A stretch of 64,000 nt of DNA from Escherichia coli (GTDB lineage Bacteria > Pseudomonadota > Gammaproteobacteria > Enterobacterales > Enterobacteriaceae). Shown in pieces: positions 41,605 through 52,150 of this stretch; the stretch's first letter is position 1; the number at the start of each line of letters is the position of its first letter. The notes below the pieces were generated by a model. The model was given only the letters and a program-made list of their open reading frames with translations, searched no databases and had not been told where the DNA came from. The translations under genes and the position numbers were made by a program. Location: the NCBI RefSeq assembly GCF_001677475.2, contig NZ_CP012497.1; one strand, given 5' to 3'.

Positions 41605-44600
41605 TCAGAAGGTATACTTCACACCCAACATTGCAGATGTGTCGTTATACCCTTTGTCACCGACTTGAACACCTACATTCCCCCACAGGTTCAGTCTGGA
41701 ATTTATCTGCCCCTCAACACCGGTTTTTATTTCTCCGATATTACGGGCACCGTCCTGATGTACCGTCACACCATTCATACGAGTACCAAAATCACGGGTG
41801 TTATGCAGCCAGTTCACTTCCACAAATGGGCTGAATTCCCGGGATTTGCCTTCATCTATACGACTGTGGCTTTTAATCCATGTTTTCACGCCCAGACGGG
41901 TACGGACATTACCATCTCCGGTGCTTTCAACACGGGTACCGTTGCTTTCGCGATGTTCGTCCGCTTTAACACCCATCCAGATGACCTGAGCCTGAGGCTG
42001 GACATACCACTCATTCAAACCACCTTGGCTGCCCGTAAACTCACCAGCCTTCCAGGTATAACCAGTTTCCAGTGATGCAGTAAGTCCTTTTGATTTCCAG
42101 GATTCACTCTGCAATCCATCACCTTTAACATAGTTATCAAACCAGCTGTACTGTGCCCAAGAGTCTAGGTAAGCCCCGTTATGTGTTTCATCATTGGCAT
42201 ACCAGGTGGCATACAGCCCAGTGCTGTAACCATTCACACTACCTTTTGAACGATATCCTGTGCGCACAGATTCTGTATTATTGTGGTCATTACCGTATCC
42301 GGCCATTAAGCCAAGATGCCAGCGATCCGTTTTATTCCAACCCCACTGTGCTATATCGCCGCCCAGTTGCATAACATAACGGTTGCTTTGTGTTTTTAAC
42401 TGGTTGCTTCCGTCGCGCCAGCGATTGTGTCCACCCTCATGACGCATCCACATGCTTGTAGTTTTCAATTCACCGGTAATCACATCGGTATACTGCATTT
42501 GCCCCTGACGTTCGTGTAGGCGAGTCACGAACATAGTATTTGCAGCAGCAATGTTTGCCGTATAGCTACCAGCTTCTGGGCGAAGATCATTGTCACCTGG
42601 TGTTGGGGTCGGATTTGGCTCCGGGTCCGGGTTCGGAGTTGGATCCTCAGGTTGTTTGCCACTAGTTAGGTACCAGTTGCCATTTTTATCGCCTTGCCCC
42701 CGCCCAAGAGTGTAATCATAAGCACCAGCCGCAATTCGGCCAACTTGTACAAAGTCACCGTTAGATTGACCATCAACCTGGATAATGTTGATGCCATTGA
42801 GTGTTTGTGCCCCAATACCACCAACGTTGTTTACGGAAACAAAGGTTTTACCCTCTGTATTTCCTTTTACAACCAACTTATCGATTGGAGATGTGTCGTC
42901 ACCAAGAACGCCTGAAAAGTAGATATAGCCATTTTCGCCAGTATAATCACCATTAATTGTTAAAGTGTTTTTTGCATCGCTGCCCAAATATATAGAGCCA
43001 TTATTATTAAGATGAGCAACATCCGAATCGCTAACCATATTCCAGATGCTGTTTTTAGCTAAATTAACAATGCCACCATTATACGCGGTTCCAGTCCAGT
43101 TGGAATTTTCTAATGAAAGATTGGCAATACTGTTACTATCAGCGCGAATATCGCCATTAAAGGAAGTATTCTTGACTGTAACATCAACGTTCCCTCCCAC
43201 ACCGGCATCATTACTGGTTGAGAAGATGAATGTGCCGTTATTCTTTATTTGGCTGCCATCTAACGTGGCGGAAATAGCACCACCATTAGCATTAAAGTTA
43301 TATCTAGTTTCGCTAATCATCACCCCATTCTCTTGGGTAAGCTCAACTTTTGCATTATTGGCAGCGACTACAGAGTCAGCCTCTTTTCCTGATACATGAA
43401 TGGATGCATTATTGCCACTAATAACTGTATTGTCATCACTGACCCATATTCCATGAGCATAATCACCGCTTGTTGTAATCGATGAACCAGAACCAAGTGT
43501 AATTTTTGCAGCTGAATTTGCTGTTGCTCCATATGAGTTTAGCCCCTTAGTAATAATCTGGGCTGTATGGGCATTAACAGTGGCTTCATTTTGTGCATTT
43601 ATACCGTATGAGTCAGTACCGGCTGTATTAATAGCTATTTGCTCGAAGCTAATATCAGCTACTTTACCATGCCCCCACACACCTATTGACTGATCACCTA
43701 ATGTGGCGATTGTTGATGTTCCCGTCAGCTCTACGCGTGAATCAGGTGCTGAGTCTGAGGGATTTAAAGCCGTAACATATATACCTTTGGCTGATGTGCC
43801 ATTTGTTTTTATTGAGATACTATCACCCGTTATTATACCACCATTACCACCGGTGATATGGATGGTATTAGCCTGCGTCCCTGATGTTTCAAGAGATGCA
43901 TTTACTCCAAGATTTATATTCCCATTATTAGAGGCAGTTACGGCATGAGCTTGTTTGCCAGAAGTGGTTACCTGGAGTCCTTTAGATACAGATATACTAG
44001 AGTTATTGCCATCTGCACGTAAACCATAGCCATTTTGGCCTGAAGTGGAAATATGAACATCAGCTAATTCAGCTGAGCCAGCTGACGATGCAGATACTCC
44101 CCAAGCCCCTGTTCCATCAGTTTTAATCTGCGTATTTGTTAGTGAAACATAACCGTTGTTTTCGGCAGATATGCCACGAGCTCCCCATGCTTGTGATGGT
44201 TTTTTATCCCCCAGAGTGGTAATGGTTGAGTCGCTAATTACTATTTTGCTATTTATGCCAGAGCTAACAATACCTCTGGCATTATCTCCAGATGTGGTAA
44301 TGTTAACTTTATTTAAACTGGCTTGGCCTCCATTTAAAATAGAAACACCACTAGCATTTACACCAGATGTGTTAATATCACCTTGTTCAACAGTTAGTGA
44401 AGATTTGTCAACATTAATCCCTGTAGCGTTTATCCCACTTGTTGTAATTGACATACCGTTAGCGATAGTCATTGAAGAATTATTATCAAGTGAAATGCCA
44501 GAGGCGTTTTTGCCTTTTGTGGTTATTGTAATCCCACCTTGAGAGTTAATTTTAGACCCACTGGATATATTAACTCCGTTTGCCTTATCACCTTCTGTAG

Positions 44601-44859
44601 ATAACGTCACTGTACCTTCGGTAGTTAGTTCACCTGAATTTGTGACAGAGATCGCATATCCATTACTTCCTGTATTACTGCCCGTATTAATATCGAGGTT
44701 ATCTTTATTAACTTGAACATCATTATCAATTTTAATAGCAGTTGTTGAAGCGTAAGCATTTGAAAATAATGCGCCGATTATAGCTGCCAGTAGGGTCAAG
44801 CGAGGAGAGTTCCCCCCTGAAGAGCTATTTTTTTTATTATTATAAACAGAAAGTGACAT
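41605..44859 (-). CDS. AIDA-I-type autotransporter adhesin (type Va secretion)
   Basis: 1084 aa; N-terminal signal peptide; about 700 aa of imperfect Gly/Ser/Thr/Asn-rich repeats; Pro-rich linker PEDPTPNPDPEPNPTPTPG; C-terminal beta-barrel ending GVKYTF. Confidence 0.85.
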   Translation of the reverse strand: MSLSVYNNKKNSSSGGNSPRLTLLAAIIGALFSNAYASTTAIKIDNDVQVNKDNLDINTGSNTGSNGYAISVTNSGELTTEGTVTLSTEGDKANGVNISSGSKINSQGGITITTKGKNASGISLDNNSSMTIANGMSITTSGINATGINVDKSSLTVEQGDINTSGVNASGVSILNGGQASLNKVNITTSGDNARGIVSSGINSKIVISDSTITTLGDKKPSQAWGARGISAENNGYVSLTNTQIKTDGTGAWGVSASSAGSAELADVHISTSGQNGYGLRADGNNSSISVSKGLQVTTSGKQAHAVTASNNGNINLGVNASLETSGTQANTIHITGGNGGIITGDSISIKTNGTSAKGIYVTALNPSDSAPDSRVELTGTSTIATLGDQSIGVWGHGKVADISFEQIAINTAGTDSYGINAQNEATVNAHTAQIITKGLNSYGATANSAAKITLGSGSSITTSGDYAHGIWVSDDNTVISGNNASIHVSGKEADSVVAANNAKVELTQENGVMISETRYNFNANGGAISATLDGSQIKNNGTFIFSTSNDAGVGGNVDVTVKNTSFNGDIRADSNSIANLSLENSNWTGTAYNGGIVNLAKNSIWNMVSDSDVAHLNNNGSIYLGSDAKNTLTINGDYTGENGYIYFSGVLGDDTSPIDKLVVKGNTEGKTFVSVNNVGGIGAQTLNGINIIQVDGQSNGDFVQVGRIAAGAYDYTLGRGQGDKNGNWYLTSGKQPEDPTPNPDPEPNPTPTPGDNDLRPEAGSYTANIAAANTMFVTRLHERQGQMQYTDVITGELKTTSMWMRHEGGHNRWRDGSNQLKTQSNRYVMQLGGDIAQWGWNKTDRWHLGLMAGYGNDHNNTESVRTGYRSKGSVNGYSTGLYATWYANDETHNGAYLDSWAQYSWFDNYVKGDGLQSESWKSKGLTASLETGYTWKAGEFTGSQGGLNEWYVQPQAQVIWMGVKADEHRESNGTRVESTGDGNVRTRLGVKTWIKSHSRIDEGKSREFSPFVEVNWLHNTRDFGTRMNGVTVHQDGARNIGEIKTGVEGQINSRLNLWGNVGVQVGDKGYNDTSAMLGVKYTF

Positions 44860-46981: not shown

Positions 46982-47293
46982 TTATTTCATCATGGAAGCT
47001 GTTAACGCTTTGGACCTTGCTGAACTGATTGAAAGGACATTGTTAACCTTACCCAAGAGTTCGCCAAACTCAGACATCACTTTAGCAAAACCGCGCCGTG
47101 CTTCTTCCTCGGTGGCATTCATCACGAAATGTTCAGCACTACGCATACTTTTGACAGGAAACGCAACGGATATTGAGTCAATATCAGGCATTCTATCGCT
47201 CAGCTTTACAGTGACAATGACGGCTGGCGACTGAATATTAGTGCTTACAGACAGCACTACATATTTTCCGTCGATGTTGAAATCCTTTCTCAT
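46982..47293 (-). CDS. Hypothetical protein (cra position)
   Basis: 103-aa ORF between cre and ref. Confidence 0.35.
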   Translation of the reverse strand: MRKDFNIDGKYVVLSVSTNIQSPAVIVTVKLSDRMPDIDSISVAFPVKSMRSAEHFVMNATEEEARRGFAKVMSEFGELLGKVNNVLSISSARSKALTASMMK

Positions 47294-47310
47294 ATGTCAC
47301 CATAAATATC

Positions 47311-47326
47311 AAAGAATTAGAGCAAT
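47311..47326. promoter_or_regulatory. C1 operator-like site
   Basis: Reverse complement ATTGCTCTAATTCTTT. Confidence 0.45.
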
Positions 47327-47343
47327 CATTTACGCATTAATGG

Positions 47344-48375
47344 CTAATCGCCATCTTCCAGCAGGCGCACCATTGCCCCTGTTTCACTATCCAGGTTACG
47401 GATATAGTTCATGACAATATTTACGTTGGTCCAGCCACCAGCTTGCATGATCTCCGGTATTGAAACTCCGGCACGGGCCATATCTCGCGCGGCTCCGACA
47501 CGGGCACTGTGTCCAGACCAGGCCAGGTACCTCTGGCCAGAGTCATCCTTAGCCCCGTAAATCAATCGGTGAGTTGCTTCAAAAATCCCTTCCAGGGCGC
47601 GAGTTGATAGCTGGCTGGTGGGTGATGGCGAGGCAACACCATTTTTTCTGACCCGGCAAAACAAGTAGTTATTCGGATCATCAGCCACACCAGAGACAGA
47701 AATCCATCGCTCGACCAGTTTAGTTACCCCCAGGCTAAGTGCCTTCTCTACACCTGCGGTGCTAACCAGCGTTTTCGTTCTGCCAATATGGATTAACATT
47801 CTCCCACCGTCAGTACGTGAGATATCTTTAACCCTGATCCTGGCAATTTCGGCTATACGTAACAGGGTGTTATAAGCAATCCCCAGAAATGCCAGATTAC
47901 GTATATCCTGGCAGCGATCGCTATTTTCCATGAGTGAACGAACCTGGTCGAAATCAGTGCGTTCGAACGCTAGTGCCTGTTTTGCACGTTCACCGGCATC
48001 AACGTTTTCTTTTCGGATCCGCCGCATAACCAGTGAAACAGCATTGCTGTCACTTGGTCGCGGCAGCCCGGACCGACGATGAAGCATGTTTAGCTGGCCC
48101 AAATGTTGCTGGATAGTTTTTACTGCCAGACCGCGCGCCTGAAGATATAGAAGATAATCGCGAACATCTTCAGGTTCTGCGGGAAACCATTTCCGGTTAT
48201 TCAACTTGCACCATGCCGCCCATGACCGGCAAACGGACAGAAGCATTTTCCAGGTATGCTCAGAAAACGCCTGGCGATCCCTGAACATATCCATCAGGTT
48301 CTTGCGAACCTCATCACTCGTTGCATCGACCGGCAATGCAGGCAAATTTTGGTGAACGGTTAACGATTTAGTCAT
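47344..48375 (-). CDS. cre: Cre tyrosine recombinase
   Basis: 343 aa, ...LTVHQNLPALPVDATSDEVRKNLMDMFRDRQAFSEHTWKMLLSVCRSWAAWCKLNNRKWFPAEPEDVRDYLLYLQARGLAVKTIQQHLGQLNMLHRRSGLP...; matches Cre apart from N-terminal residues. Confidence 0.95.
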   Translation of the reverse strand: MTKSLTVHQNLPALPVDATSDEVRKNLMDMFRDRQAFSEHTWKMLLSVCRSWAAWCKLNNRKWFPAEPEDVRDYLLYLQARGLAVKTIQQHLGQLNMLHRRSGLPRPSDSNAVSLVMRRIRKENVDAGERAKQALAFERTDFDQVRSLMENSDRCQDIRNLAFLGIAYNTLLRIAEIARIRVKDISRTDGGRMLIHIGRTKTLVSTAGVEKALSLGVTKLVERWISVSGVADDPNNYLFCRVRKNGVASPSPTSQLSTRALEGIFEATHRLIYGAKDDSGQRYLAWSGHSARVGAARDMARAGVSIPEIMQAGGWTNVNIVMNYIRNLDSETGAMVRLLEDGD

Positions 48376-48767
48376 TTATTATGCGTAATTTTAACAGTTA
48401 AGCCTTGTTCATGAAGTATCTCATCAATAATTCGAATCACATCCCCAGGTAGATCATCGTTCTCGAAATATCTGTGATCGGGGATTTCTACAGTGATTGG
48501 AGTTGCTGCTTCATGCAAAATCCGAACAGTCTTTTTTTCTTCTTTGCATGCTGAATATTCAGCCTCTTCGATATCTTTCCAGCTTGCACCATCAAATTGC
48601 TGGTAAACCCGAGTGTACTGCATGCGGTTTCGCTTTACTTCTTCTGCTAACTCCCAAATTGCAACGGCCATAGCACGTTCATTTTCACTCGTTCCAGGGT
48701 TAGCAGCTTTTTGTTTTGCGTCCTTAAGTAAGGCGTTTACCTTGGCATCCGTCAGGCTATTAAACAT
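48372..48767 (-). CDS. Hypothetical protein upstream of cre
   Basis: 131 aa; its stop overlaps the cre start by 4 bp. Confidence 0.4.
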   Translation of the reverse strand: MFNSLTDAKVNALLKDAKQKAANPGTSENERAMAVAIWELAEEVKRNRMQYTRVYQQFDGASWKDIEEAEYSACKEEKKTVRILHEAATPITVEIPDHRYFENDDLPGDVIRIIDEILHEQGLTVKITHNK

Positions 48768-48786
48768 GCATCACCTCATGATCAAG

Positions 48787-49008
48787 TTAAATTATTGTTT
48801 TCAGCAGAGTGTACAGGATTGGATCTGCCTTTACCTGTTTATGGTTCTCGTCATAGAAACGCCAGCGACCGCGCGTGCGTTCTATTTTCTCTTCACCGCG
48901 AGATAATGACAGTTGGTAACTATCACGCTCAAACCCTTTTGCCCGCCAGTAACCACGGTTTTTCTCAAGCTCAAGATGAGTGGACACTTTAGCAGCTGAA
49001 TATCCCAT
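48787..49008 (-). CDS. Hypothetical small basic protein
   Basis: 73-aa ORF between loxP and cre. Confidence 0.25.
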   Translation of the reverse strand: MGYSAAKVSTHLELEKNRGYWRAKGFERDSYQLSLSRGEEKIERTRGRWRFYDENHKQVKADPILYTLLKTII

Positions 49009-49197
49009 TTTTCACCTCTGATTGATTGGTGGTGCTAAGTGCGCTACGCGAAATCTGGAGCACTAACACTGCCAACATTTCGCAGATTTTACGTAGCGCA
49101 ACCTTGATCAAATGATCAAGTGATCACTATTTGACCTGATAAGGTATTGAACTGTATGGATTTACAGGTAAATTGATCATGTTCAATAACCCTTAAG

Positions 49198-49231
49198 ATA
49201 ACTTCGTATAATGTATGCTATACGAAGTTAT
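49198..49231. other. loxP site
   Basis: Exact ATAACTTCGTATA-ATGTATGC-TATACGAAGTTAT (13-bp inverted repeats, 8-bp spacer). Confidence 0.95.
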
Positions 49232-49276
49232 TAGGTCTGAAGAGGAGTTTACGTCCAGCTGCGCATAAAAAACAAG

Positions 49277-49291
49277 AATTATTAGAGCAAT
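49277..49291. promoter_or_regulatory. C1 operator (minus orientation)
   Basis: Reverse complement ATTGCTCTAATAATT. Confidence 0.55.
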
Positions 49292-49357
49292 ATATTTTGA
49301 GAGATAAATCCCACTCCACCAGCCAAAAACTGGATTGTTTTTCATAGTTGTTTGACA

Positions 49358-49373
49358 ATTGCTCTAATAAATT
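49358..49373. promoter_or_regulatory. C1 operator (plus orientation), upstream of coi-c1
   Basis: ATTGCTCTAATAAATT, near-exact consensus. Confidence 0.6.
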
Positions 49374-49612
49374 ATAGTTTTGCCACCGTTTCGTAATACG
49401 ACTTTGGATTCACTATTTAATGTGTCTTCAGCGTTGTAGAGCGGCTCAGAAGGAAATGAGCAAACAGGGAAACCTTATACAACGGCATTACAGCTATGCA
49501 TTGCTCATCTTACACACAGCGCAATGTTGATAGATAACCCCAGCATGGAACATGGGTGAAACAGTAGGTCAGAGCTTCAGGCTCTGTGTTGTCAATACAG
49601 TGAGGCATAATT

Positions 49613-49822
49613 ATGGCTTTCATTCCACCAACCATCGACGATGTTAGACATTGCTCTAACGCTTTATCTGTAGACCCCGCCGAAACCGACGCTGCTCGCG
49701 CCATTGCTGAACACTACTCAAAGATATCCAATCAGGAGTACCGCATCACCCAAGACGACCTGGATGACCTCACTGACACAATCGAATATCTCATGGCAAC
49801 TAACCAGTTAGACTCACAATAA
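49613..49822 (+). CDS. coi: Coi-like (C1 inactivator), by size and position
   Basis: 69 aa immediately upstream of c1. Confidence 0.55.
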   Translation: MAFIPPTIDDVRHCSNALSVDPAETDAARAIAEHYSKISNQEYRITQDDLDDLTDTIEYLMATNQLDSQ

Positions 49823-49932
49823 ATGCACTAATAAATCTATTATTTTTGTTTGATCCCTCTATAATATAGGTCAGTAATGACCGGTTTTCTCAGCCGGGCG
49901 TTATTGACCATGTCAATTCTGGAGGAGGATCA

Positions 49933-50784
49933 ATGATAAATTATGTCTACGGCGAACAACTGTACCAGGAGTTCGTCAGCTTCAGGGATCTCTTTCTAAA
50001 AAAAGCTGTTGCACGCGCCCAACACGTTGATGCCGCCAGCGACGGTCGTCCTGTACGCCCGGTTGTCGTTCTACCGTTCAAAGAAACAGACAGCATTCAG
50101 GCTGAAATTGATAAATGGACTTTAATGGCGCGGGAACTGGAACAGTACCCAGACCTCAATATCCCAAAGACTATTTTATATCCTGTGCCTAACATCCTTC
50201 GCGGTGTACGTAAGGTTACGACTTATCAGACAGAAGCTGTGAACAGCGTCAACATGACCGCTGGCCGCATTATTCATCTGATTGATAAGGACATTCGCAT
50301 CCAAAAAAGCGCGGGGATCAATGAGCACAGTGCGAAATACATAGAGAACCTGGAAGCAACAAAAGAGCTAATGAAGCAGTACCCAGAGGATGAAAAATTC
50401 CGTATGCGCGTACACGGCTTTAGCGAAACAATGCTGCGCGTCCACTACATTTCCAGTAGCCCTAACTACAATGATGGTAAATCAGTTAGTTACCATGTGC
50501 CACTGTGTGGCGTGTTTATCTGCGATGAAACTCTCCGTGATGGAATTATCATCAACGGTGAATTCGAAAAAGCAAAATTTAGCCTTTATGACTCCATAGA
50601 ACCGATCATCTGCGACCGCTGGCCGCAAGCAAAAATATATCGCCTGGCAGATATTGAAAATGTAAAAAAACAAATTGCCATCACTCGCGAAGAGAAAAAG
50701 GTTAAGTCAGCCGCATCAGTTACGCGCAGCCGTAAAACTAAGAAGGGGCAGCCAGTAAACGACAACCCCGAAAGCGCGCAATAA
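49933..50784 (+). CDS. c1: C1 immunity repressor
   Basis: 283 aa, MINYVYGEQLYQEFVSFRDLFLKKAVARAQ...; matching operators throughout the window. Confidence 0.85.
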   Translation: MINYVYGEQLYQEFVSFRDLFLKKAVARAQHVDAASDGRPVRPVVVLPFKETDSIQAEIDKWTLMARELEQYPDLNIPKTILYPVPNILRGVRKVTTYQTEAVNSVNMTAGRIIHLIDKDIRIQKSAGINEHSAKYIENLEATKELMKQYPEDEKFRMRVHGFSETMLRVHYISSSPNYNDGKSVSYHVPLCGVFICDETLRDGIIINGEFEKAKFSLYDSIEPIICDRWPQAKIYRLADIENVKKQIAITREEKKVKSAASVTRSRKTKKGQPVNDNPESAQ

Positions 50785-50816: not shown

Positions 50817-51932
50817 TTATTCAGCCGCCACCGGTTTTAACAAGCCAGCATCGAGCAGTTTACGCGTCAACCACTGTTGGCCTTTCCCCGTTAATTGAGG
50901 CGTCAGCCGTATCTGATAGCCATCTTCATCATCCAGCACCACTTCTCTCACTGTGAAATATCCGGCGTTTATGTACTGCTGAAACGGTACATTTTTACGT
51001 CCGCCGGACGCAATCAGGATGCCGTTCTCCCGTAACCAGGCAAACAGCGCATTTTGCTTAAGTCCAACAACCTTTGCAAAATTCCCAATCAGGATCCCCT
51101 TAGCCACTGATACCCGGTCGGCAAAATCGACTTTAGGGGCTGCGGCCACCAGCTGCTGATTTAGCTGGTGGGTTTTCTGTTCCAGAAGTTGCTTTTGTTC
51201 AGCCAGCTCGGCAGCCAGGCGCAGAGCTTCTGGAAGCGTCTGGGGGATTGCGATCGGTTGCTGTTCTTTTTGTCGGAAGTAGCTGTCTTCCAGTTTTTCA
51301 AAGAATGCCCATGCCTGATCTGTTTCGAGCATTTTTGCGTGACGGGCAGCTCCTCGTTCCGTCCAGAGGATGAGTGAGCGGGCTTTAGGAGAGATGGGAT
51401 TTTGTGAGTTACTTAAAGTCACCCGCAAATTGTTCAAATCATCTCCAATAACTTTATAGAAATGCTTGCCTTCACAAAAACGTTCAGCATTACGGGAAAA
51501 GTTCTTCTTGATGTTATCCGCATCGGTCCCATACCCCTTAGCAAGGATCTTGGTTGTCACTACACGCACTCCCAGCCATTCCAGAACGGGAATTTCATCA
51601 GACTGATTCTGAACAACCACCAGCTCTGACTCCTGAACTGAAGGTGCATGAACTTTTTCTGATTTAACGTTAGTTGCTTTCATTCTGTGTGCCTCCTTGC
51701 GTGTTTCGGCTGCGACGGTTGCGTAATTCAGATGCCCCTGTTCGAGCAGGTATTCGCGGATATCAGACAGCAGGATGCGGTGAACCGCGTTCTTGTCCTT
51801 TCTCCGGTAAAGTTGTTTGGTGATCATGAAGTAGTTGGCTATAACGCCTGGTATATCCCTGGTACTGATACAAGCAGTGTGCTGTTCAATTGCCTCGATC
51901 ATCTCTTCACGGGTGACTAATGACGTTCTCAT
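50817..51932 (-). CDS. ant1: Antirepressor Ant1-like (KilA-C / antirepressor C-terminal domain)
   Basis: 371 aa from MRTSLVTREEM...; its start overlaps the icd stop (ATGA); C-terminal DFADRVSVAKGILIGNFAKVVGLKQNALFAWLRENGIL. Confidence 0.6.
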   Translation of the reverse strand: MRTSLVTREEMIEAIEQHTACISTRDIPGVIANYFMITKQLYRRKDKNAVHRILLSDIREYLLEQGHLNYATVAAETRKEAHRMKATNVKSEKVHAPSVQESELVVVQNQSDEIPVLEWLGVRVVTTKILAKGYGTDADNIKKNFSRNAERFCEGKHFYKVIGDDLNNLRVTLSNSQNPISPKARSLILWTERGAARHAKMLETDQAWAFFEKLEDSYFRQKEQQPIAIPQTLPEALRLAAELAEQKQLLEQKTHQLNQQLVAAAPKVDFADRVSVAKGILIGNFAKVVGLKQNALFAWLRENGILIASGGRKNVPFQQYINAGYFTVREVVLDDEDGYQIRLTPQLTGKGQQWLTRKLLDAGLLKPVAAE

Positions 51933-52150
51933 AGTCCCTCCTGAGCACAAGCGTTTACAGGGGGGCACCAGTAACTGAGAGAATTGCGCAAATCGGTAGA
52001 AAAACGGGCGGAGAAAATACAGGGAGCATCCGGAAGCTGAGAACGTGCCTCATCTTCTGTTGGTGCGATAACGAAGTGATAGTGACGTTTCTGGCAGGAG
52101 TAAAAGCGCCAGATGAATTCAGGGTGAGCTGGGGTAGGGGTAGTAGCCAT
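51929..52150 (-). CDS. icd: Icd-like small protein
   Basis: 73 aa (MATTPTPAHPEFIWRFY...), strong SD AAGGAGG 8 nt upstream; translationally coupled to ant. Confidence 0.55.
   Translation of the reverse strand: MATTPTPAHPEFIWRFYSCQKRHYHFVIAPTEDEARSQLPDAPCIFSARFSTDLRNSLSYWCPPVNACAQEGL

Follow-up and report, generated by a model that had tools for sequence, protein, structure and literature searches.

Evidence for cassette exchange and takeover of the cre translation start in a P1-like element of Escherichia coli

The stretch of DNA analysed here (the window; 64,000 nucleotides of Escherichia coli contig NZ_CP012497.1, assembly GCF_001677475.2) carries a P1-type loxP-cre region in which one gene, orf131, stands between cra and cre and overlaps the start of the latter. 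The explanation that we favour as a whole, with a probability of roughly three in four, is that orf131 would be a horizontally exchanged cassette, brought into the region by recombination at the ends of cra and of cre. Relative to P1 only orf131 is extra, as cra has long been known; what is new is the evidence for the exchange of the cassette and for the takeover of the translation start of cre. The module itself is well known, and the version of it in the window departs from it modestly.

The interval between loxP and cre

On the minus strand of the window the features follow one another in the order loxP, cra, orf131 and cre, which is the conventional P1 orientation (Table 1). An earlier note, made from the letters of the window, had described two small ORFs between loxP and cre, and both are indeed found there on the minus strand. 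It had also described the P1 interval as shorter and non-coding: the former holds, as the interval measures 418 nt in P1 and 822 nt in the window, whereas the latter does not, since P1 and P7 carry cra within it. In these two phages cra/upf0.2 lies at 207-428 and cre starts at 436, with 7 nt between them.

Table 1. Features of the loxP-cre region, in positions of the whole window
Feature	Positions	Strand	Basis and remarks
c1	49933-50784		other side of loxP, as in P1
coi	49613-49822		other side of loxP, as in P1
loxP	49198-49231	.	exact pattern match to the canonical 34-bp site; aligns with P1 lox half-site, P1 positions 1-17
LexA box (annotated in P1/P7, P1 46-65)	49150-49169	-	invariant alignment columns; overlaps divergent P2coi promoter
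GATC (Dam) sites	49106, 49114, 49122, 49175		four-site pattern as in P7
Putative P3cre promoter equivalent (P1 104-129)	49086-49111	-	sequence identical; alignment and P1/P7 annotation only
cra (73 aa, ATG start)	48787-49008	-	ORF list; 69/73 identical to P1 Cra
Putative P2cre promoter equivalent (P1 283-312), within cra	48903-48932	-	alignment; -35 TTGAGC, in P1 TTGATC
Putative P1cre promoter equivalent (P1 400-424)	48791-48815	-	alignment and P1 annotation; -35 TGTACA kept, -10 ATTAT changed to ATAAT
Putative imported patch, about 470 bp	48355-48823 (outer limits)	-	left breakpoint 48832-48807, right breakpoint 48354 to about 48335
orf131 Shine-Dalgarno GAGGTGA	48771-48777	-	3 nt upstream of ATG (7-nt aligned spacing); -6.9 kcal/mol duplex with 16S 3' end
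orf131 (131 aa, ATG start)	48372-48767	-	ORF list
ATGA stop/start overlap	48372-48375	-	cre ATG 48375-48373, orf131 TGA 48374-48372; 4 nt in common, including the stop
cre (343 aa)	47344-48375	-	PF00589 at 6e-33

The 73-residue product is about 95% identical to P1 Cra (AAQ13977), and its residues 3-73 match phrog_804 (1.1e-33). Megablast against phage records aligns the half of the interval next to loxP at 95-98% identity with P1, P7, SJ46, RCS47 and others, in which the ORF is cra, and the ORF has the orientation of cre and the same place between loxP and cre as in P1 and P7. In fact, the P1 cre sequence of 1986 (X03453) already annotates a 73-residue gene as 'pot. ORF1 (aa 1-73)', and an ORF between loxP and cre in P1 is mentioned in the literature (PMC2409434). 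The 73-residue ORF can thus be identified by these matches as the known P1 gene cra (Cre-associated), a name that is positional, the P1 record reading 'putative cre associated function'. P1, P7 and distant relatives all have the frame uninterrupted, dN/dS against distant homologues is well below 1, and the gene is preceded by the Shine-Dalgarno (SD) sequence GAGGTGA. Using codon-usage log-odds trained on the 21 long ORFs of the window (training mean 0.26 ± 0.08 per codon), cra scores +0.29 per codon when read in its annotated frame and negatively in the other five. The protein is basic, as the earlier note had it, with a pI of 9.7. Searches with Cra of family profiles (Pfam, NCBIfam) and PDB sequences gave no match, its AF2 model (pLDDT 70) has no fold match by Foldseek (best E-value 0.2), and the literature found on cra consists of positional mentions.

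The surroundings are also those of P1 and P7 (AF234172 and AF503408, from which the feature annotation was taken, and X03453). The window shares with them loxP, the LexA box (mapped as window position = 49215 - P1 position), the P3cre sequence and the cluster of Dam sites, as well as the flanks, which hold coi and c1 on one side and equivalents of c8, ref and mat, downstream of cre, on the other. Unlike P1, the window has an interval longer by 404 nt, which carries orf131, a 19-nt SD-bearing spacer after cra instead of the 7-nt one, a cre start that overlaps the upstream stop, and P1's nearest cre promoter now lying before orf131. No Rfam family was found within 47000-50000, and no terminator-like site on the minus strand in 47200-49700. 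A consensus scan of the minus strand gave no sigma-70-like site, a scan that also misses the experimentally described weak cre promoters of P1. No paralogue of ORF131 or Cra was found within the window.

orf131 as a gene and its distribution

The 131-residue ORF had been noted to overlap the cre start by 4 bp, and the ATGA at its end bears this out. The codon score of orf131 is +0.29 per codon in its own frame and negative in the other five, among them that of a 97-aa plus-strand ORF that overlaps the gene. Scoring of ribosome-binding sites and codon usage, which the earlier note had proposed as a check, thus gives for both small ORFs a strong SD (about -7 kcal/mol) and a gene-like codon score. 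The SD of orf131, GAGGTGA, is kept in the relatives L003, L004, L005 and L007. Across all informative allele comparisons dN/dS is 0.12-0.40, and the synonymous excess between relatives is significant (Fisher p about 1.6e-5 to 4e-8); among the closest E. coli alleles, which differ by few substitutions, dN/dS is higher (0.40-0.65). Five E. coli and Salmonella alleles, with proteins up to 16% different from one another, all have exactly 131 codons with zero indels, and the AATAAATGAC stop/start junction of orf131 and cre is present in five of five relatives examined. The codon score, the SD, dN/dS and the conservation of length and of the ATGA junction together indicate that orf131 is to be read as a real gene, and its predicted product is a hydrophilic, acidic protein with a pI of 5.2. 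A dnaX-type -1 frameshift site (A AAA AAG, orf131 codons 77-79) was considered and set aside, as the heptamer is broken in allele L007.

The earlier note would have given up the two genes had their frames been disrupted by stops in relatives. This is not what is observed, as the cra frame and, in the PLSDB and Salmonella copies, the orf131 frame are intact, and the only frameshifted orf131 alleles that turned up are two, both in raw-read assemblies. These two alleles suggest that the gene is dispensable. They also speak for a different reading, according to which the 131 codons would be a non-functional open frame in inserted DNA, as do the restriction of homologues to a narrow E. coli/Salmonella group, the low-confidence structure prediction of ORF131 and the dN/dS of 0.65 in one close allele pair. 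Against this stand the significant synonymous excess over 0.3 dS, the codon usage that is gene-like in one frame only, the strong and conserved SD, and five alleles which, although as much as 16% apart in protein, have no indel and an unchanged stop/start junction, so that we regard such a frame as highly improbable.

The distribution of orf131 is narrow. A P1-type loxP-cre region is present in 698 of 5,426 complete E. coli genomes, and 31 of these 698 carry orf131, always on a plasmid, in single copy and full-length at the DNA level, and in all 31 under annotated hypothetical-protein and integrase CDSs. Among 703 matching PLSDB plasmids 13 have it, and in each of the 13 the frame is intact, being recovered as a single full-length tblastn piece. 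The frame is likewise intact in the Salmonella copies. Overall, about 95% of P1-like elements have cra-cre without orf131. No carrier was found by tblastn of ORF131 against the INPHARED phages, P1 and P7 having no orf131, and in megablast all phage records align to the interval in two pieces, skipping orf131. Many of the carriers are Shiga toxin-producing E. coli (STEC) of O111:H8/H- and O103:H2, as for example those with pO111_2. In the P1-like plasmids of STEC O111/O103, for which pO111_2 of E. coli O111:H- 11128 (NC_013370) is an example, and in pAVS0578-B (NZ_CP124376), the cra-orf131-cre order of the window recurs with identical junctions, and orf131 is annotated there as 'hypothetical protein'. 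The allele of the window is closest to that of pAVS0578-B (98.5% amino acid identity) and is 91.6% identical to the common O111 allele. The conservation in P1-like plasmids that the earlier note had asked about therefore differs for the two genes, cra being widespread and orf131 rare, though full-length and with the ATGA junction.

Homologues of ORF131 are 84-98% identical and come from P1-like elements of E. coli and Salmonella only. A word-indexed search of 5.8 billion proteins returned six clusters (84-100% identity), exclusively from E. coli and Salmonella, and a HMMER profile search of 1.84 billion representatives returned only the cluster of ORF131 itself, a truncated copy and one repeat-protein artefact. 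By these searches ORF131 is an ORFan confined to P1-like phage-plasmids.

Exchange of the cassette between diverged backbones

The outline of the cassette emerges from comparison with P1. On both sides of the patch given in Table 1 the identity to P1 is 98-100%, and within it the alignment runs at 81%, is interrupted by a gap, and resumes at 90%. The patch contains the last 20-35 nt or so of cra, the 19-nt spacer, orf131 and about the first 21 nt of cre, and its diagnostic bases are unlike P1 and match the Salmonella type (L005/L007). In its cra part the last 20 nt or so hold synonymous changes only (LYTLLKTII is kept), with an E62D replacement further in. At the other end, the N-terminus of Cre reads MTKSL in the window, MSNLL in P1 and MTNSL in the Salmonella type, and after codon 7 cre returns to 98-100% DNA identity with P1 (dS 0.09).

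The Salmonella P1-like elements L005-L007 (Logan contigs) have an identical loxP, orf131 between homologues of cra and cre, and the same ATGA junction. Their order is loxP - orf356 - cra (71 aa) - orf131 - cre (342 aa), the extra 356-aa ORF lying between loxP and cra and overlapping the start of the latter. The backbone is deeply diverged from that of the window, with Cre at about 85% amino acid identity, saturated synonymous sites, and Cra at about 61%. Between the window and L005, pS amounts to 0.81 (saturated) in cre and 0.66 in cra and to only 0.26 in orf131, and a 50-nt identity profile falls from about 90% over orf131 to about 70% on either side of it. Between L005 and L007 the pattern is reversed, with dS of 0.12 in cre, 0.18 in cra and 0.32 in orf131. 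This low value against L005 and its reversal within the Salmonella type indicate that the history of orf131 is uncoupled from that of its flanks. The GC content of orf131 (41%, compared with 51% in cre and 48% in the window) fits a foreign origin.

These comparisons point to a transfer of orf131 between deeply diverged P1-like backbones, in which homologous recombination would have used conserved sequence at the 3' end of cra and at the 5' end of cre. In the window the same event would have brought in the strong ribosome-binding site of orf131 and swapped the first five codons of cre. The long form, with orf131, is found in L005-L007, and the short form, with a 7-nt spacer between cra and cre, in P1/P7, Salmonella L009-L011, Klebsiella L012-L014 and Cronobacter L015; the spacer of the short form keeps its length of 7 nt while its sequence varies between lineages. 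A parsimonious reading is that the orf131 cassette came into being, or was inserted, a single time at the junction of cra and cre and then moved between diverged backbones.

A reverse history, with the long form as the ancestor and P1 and P7 derived from it by deletion of orf131, would draw on a loose likeness of the P1 spacer and cre start (TGAGTGTTAAATGTCCAAT..CTGAC) to the leader and start of orf131 (TGAGGTGATGCATGTTTAAT..CTGAC), and on the fact that ORF131 and Cre both start with M-x-N-x-L-T. However, four lineages that are deeply diverged from one another (P1/P7, Salmonella L009, Klebsiella L013 and Cronobacter L015) all have the 7-nt short form, and ancestral orf131 alleles would be expected to show a pS of about 0.8, like cre, and not the observed 0.26. 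Moreover, codons 2-5 of P1 cre, compared by eye, agree with those of long-form cre at 8 of 12 positions and with those of orf131 at 7 of 12. We consider such a loss in P1 and P7 very unlikely. The related idea of a hybrid cre start in P1, produced by deletion of orf131, was rejected, as the base matches are no better than those with the long-form cre start.

Translation of cre and the role of ORF131

In the window cre has no SD sequence: its best anti-SD duplex is at +1.5 kcal/mol, as compared with -2.5 kcal/mol (a weak GAG) for P1 cre and with -7.1 and -6.9 kcal/mol for cra and orf131. The start region of cre is AU-rich and unstructured (z = +1.2), and no stable RNA structure masks the start. 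With a stop/start overlap of the ATGA type and a downstream gene that lacks its own ribosome-binding site, orf131 and cre show two sequence features of a translationally coupled pair. Since there is no terminator-like site between the ORFs and cre, and no SD at cre, the most likely arrangement predicted for cra, orf131 and cre is a single transcription unit in which ribosomes that end orf131 reinitiate at the cre AUG. The earlier proposal that cre is the last gene of a small operon thus survives in part: an operon is the best reading from sequence, but cre may not be its final gene, as c8 begins 50 nt further on and no terminator-like site is found.

Leftward transcription would start from P1-type cre promoters beside loxP and inside cra, which are conserved here together with the Dam sites. 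Given that the promoter nearest to cre in P1 now precedes orf131, transcripts that reach cre would carry orf131 first. With the loss of even the weak SD of P1 cre, ribosomes arriving at the UGA of the AUGA probably restart on the cre AUG, and the output of Cre would be tied to the translation of orf131. An internal promoter inside orf131 is possible, the promoter scan being one that misses the weak P1 cre promoters. The conserved 7-nt spacing of the short form suggests that in P1 cre may be coupled in a similar manner to cra.

As to what ORF131 does, none of the searches yields an assignment. Its residues 1-131 match positions 1-131 of phrog_20152 (6.7e-84), a family without known function. 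Comparison with Pfam gave sub-threshold noise only and with NCBIfam noise only, PADLOC gave no match, and a sequence-profile search of the PDB nothing credible. AF2 gives a poor model (pLDDT 54) made up largely of helices, with a small alpha/beta portion at the C-terminus; Foldseek finds no match to this model in the PDB (best E-value 0.48). No publication on orf131 was found in a literature search, the public annotation being 'hypothetical protein' only. A toxin-antitoxin or defence pair made of cra and orf131 was considered and rejected, as neither PADLOC, Pfam nor NCBIfam gives a match and about 95% of P1-like elements have cra but no orf131.

The position of the gene invites the idea that ORF131 is a dedicated partner of Cre, acting on Cre level, on the bias between resolution and fusion at loxP, or on cyclisation after infection, with the coupling fixing the ratio of the two proteins. 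In agreement with this, the ATGA overlap with cre is kept in every carrier on two deeply diverged backbones, orf131 is never found at another location, and it was imported along with the cre start. Its constant position is, however, already accounted for by transfer through flanking homology. Although orf131 adjoins cre as an accessory factor of a recombinase might, profile and fold searches detect no DNA-binding domain (an Xis or HTH fold, for example), nor any other nucleic-acid-binding or recombinase-associated one; the model is poor enough that a DNA-binding domain may have escaped the search. The protein has a pI of 5.2. In addition, frameshifted alleles occur, and the roughly 95% of P1-like elements that lack orf131 include P1 and P7, in which Cre function has been studied (PMC2409434). 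We thus find a dedicated partnership unlikely. A variant in which ORF131 is a horizontally traded modulator that sets Cre level or biases loxP recombination, for example towards resolution, is likewise unlikely; in it, the hand-over of ribosomes at AUGA would enforce co-production of ORF131 and Cre in a fixed ratio.

Our best guess is instead an accessory, moron-like role in the plasmid (lysogenic) state, unrelated to recombination chemistry. A dispensable role of this kind is favoured over one in recombination because most P1-like elements, P1 and P7 among them, do without the gene and because frameshifted alleles occur. Like phage morons, orf131 is present or absent between conserved genes, has a low GC content (41% against 48-51%), a history uncoupled from the backbone and the character of an ORFan. 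A classical moron has its own promoter and terminator. Contrary to this, neither was detected for orf131 beyond the resident P1cre equivalent in front of it, the promoter scan being one of low sensitivity, and the gene is embedded in the resident operon, to which it appears to be translationally linked.

Cre-loxP is among the most widely used genetic tools, yet its native expression context is seldom examined. In every P1-like element examined cre closely adjoins an upstream ORF, which is cra in P1 and cra-orf131 here, and a small ORFan cassette appears to have recombined repeatedly into the exact cra/cre junction, where it would have taken over ribosome entry for cre. If it is true that ORF131 affects Cre, this would be of interest to recombinase engineers; otherwise orf131 joins the uncharacterised accessory genes, and is enriched among the P1-like plasmids of STEC O111/O103. 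As read here, orf131 would represent a clean small case in which diverged phage-plasmids exchanged a gene cassette by way of short flanks that are conserved.

Genes between loxP and cra in relatives

In the P1-like elements of Salmonella, Klebsiella and Cronobacter, one or two extra ORFs are found between loxP and cra, the 73-aa P1 gene. A 356-aa ORF (phrog_7674), whose stop overlaps the cra start, is common to all these relatives (L005-L007, Salmonella contigs with orf131, and L009-L015, contigs of the three genera without it), being preceded in L009-L015 by a 68-aa ORF (phrog_19934). In relatives, cre can thus be preceded by as many as three genes, which makes four with cre itself. Annotation artefacts were observed among RefSeq/GenBank relatives of cra (48787-49008) and cre (47344-48375), such as the label 'creatininase' given to Cra by PGAP in hundreds of records.

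Frameshifts in orf131 and residue differences in Cre

The 131-aa gene orf131 contains a dnaX-type slippery heptamer, A AAA AAG, at which the allele L008 (1220-1620), from a read-level assembly, has a 1-nt deletion that shortens the product to 92 aa; in another allele, P0007, the frameshift is earlier. Programmed frameshifting at this site is unlikely, since the heptamer is broken in the L007 allele. Cre differs from P1 Cre at the N-terminus and in two residues (GVASPSPTS versus GVAAPSATS in P1), in a region also variable among relatives.

An insertion next to c1 and a cargo gene beyond mat

Features and their positions
Feature	Position	Strand	Remark
Slippery run	48532-48538		orf131 codons 77-79
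Two-residue Cre difference	~47560-47590		within cre, residues ~249-255
Extra ORF(s), loxP-cra	L005-L007 1699-2981; L009-L015 1688-3216
ORF6N + KilAC protein	50817-51968	-	383 aa, antirepressor-type
Autotransporter	41605-44859	-	1084 aa; PF03797 beta-domain (8e-44), AC_1 autochaperone domain

Whereas c1 is directly followed by the terminase gene in plasmid pAVS0578-B, here the ORF6N + KilAC gene comes directly after c1, which makes it another variable insertion. Beyond mat, the autotransporter gene occupies the place of res/mod in P1, and only one PLSDB record (CP056895, 93% identity) covers both this gene and the cre region. The autotransporter gene is a virulence-type cargo on a P1-like phage-plasmid.
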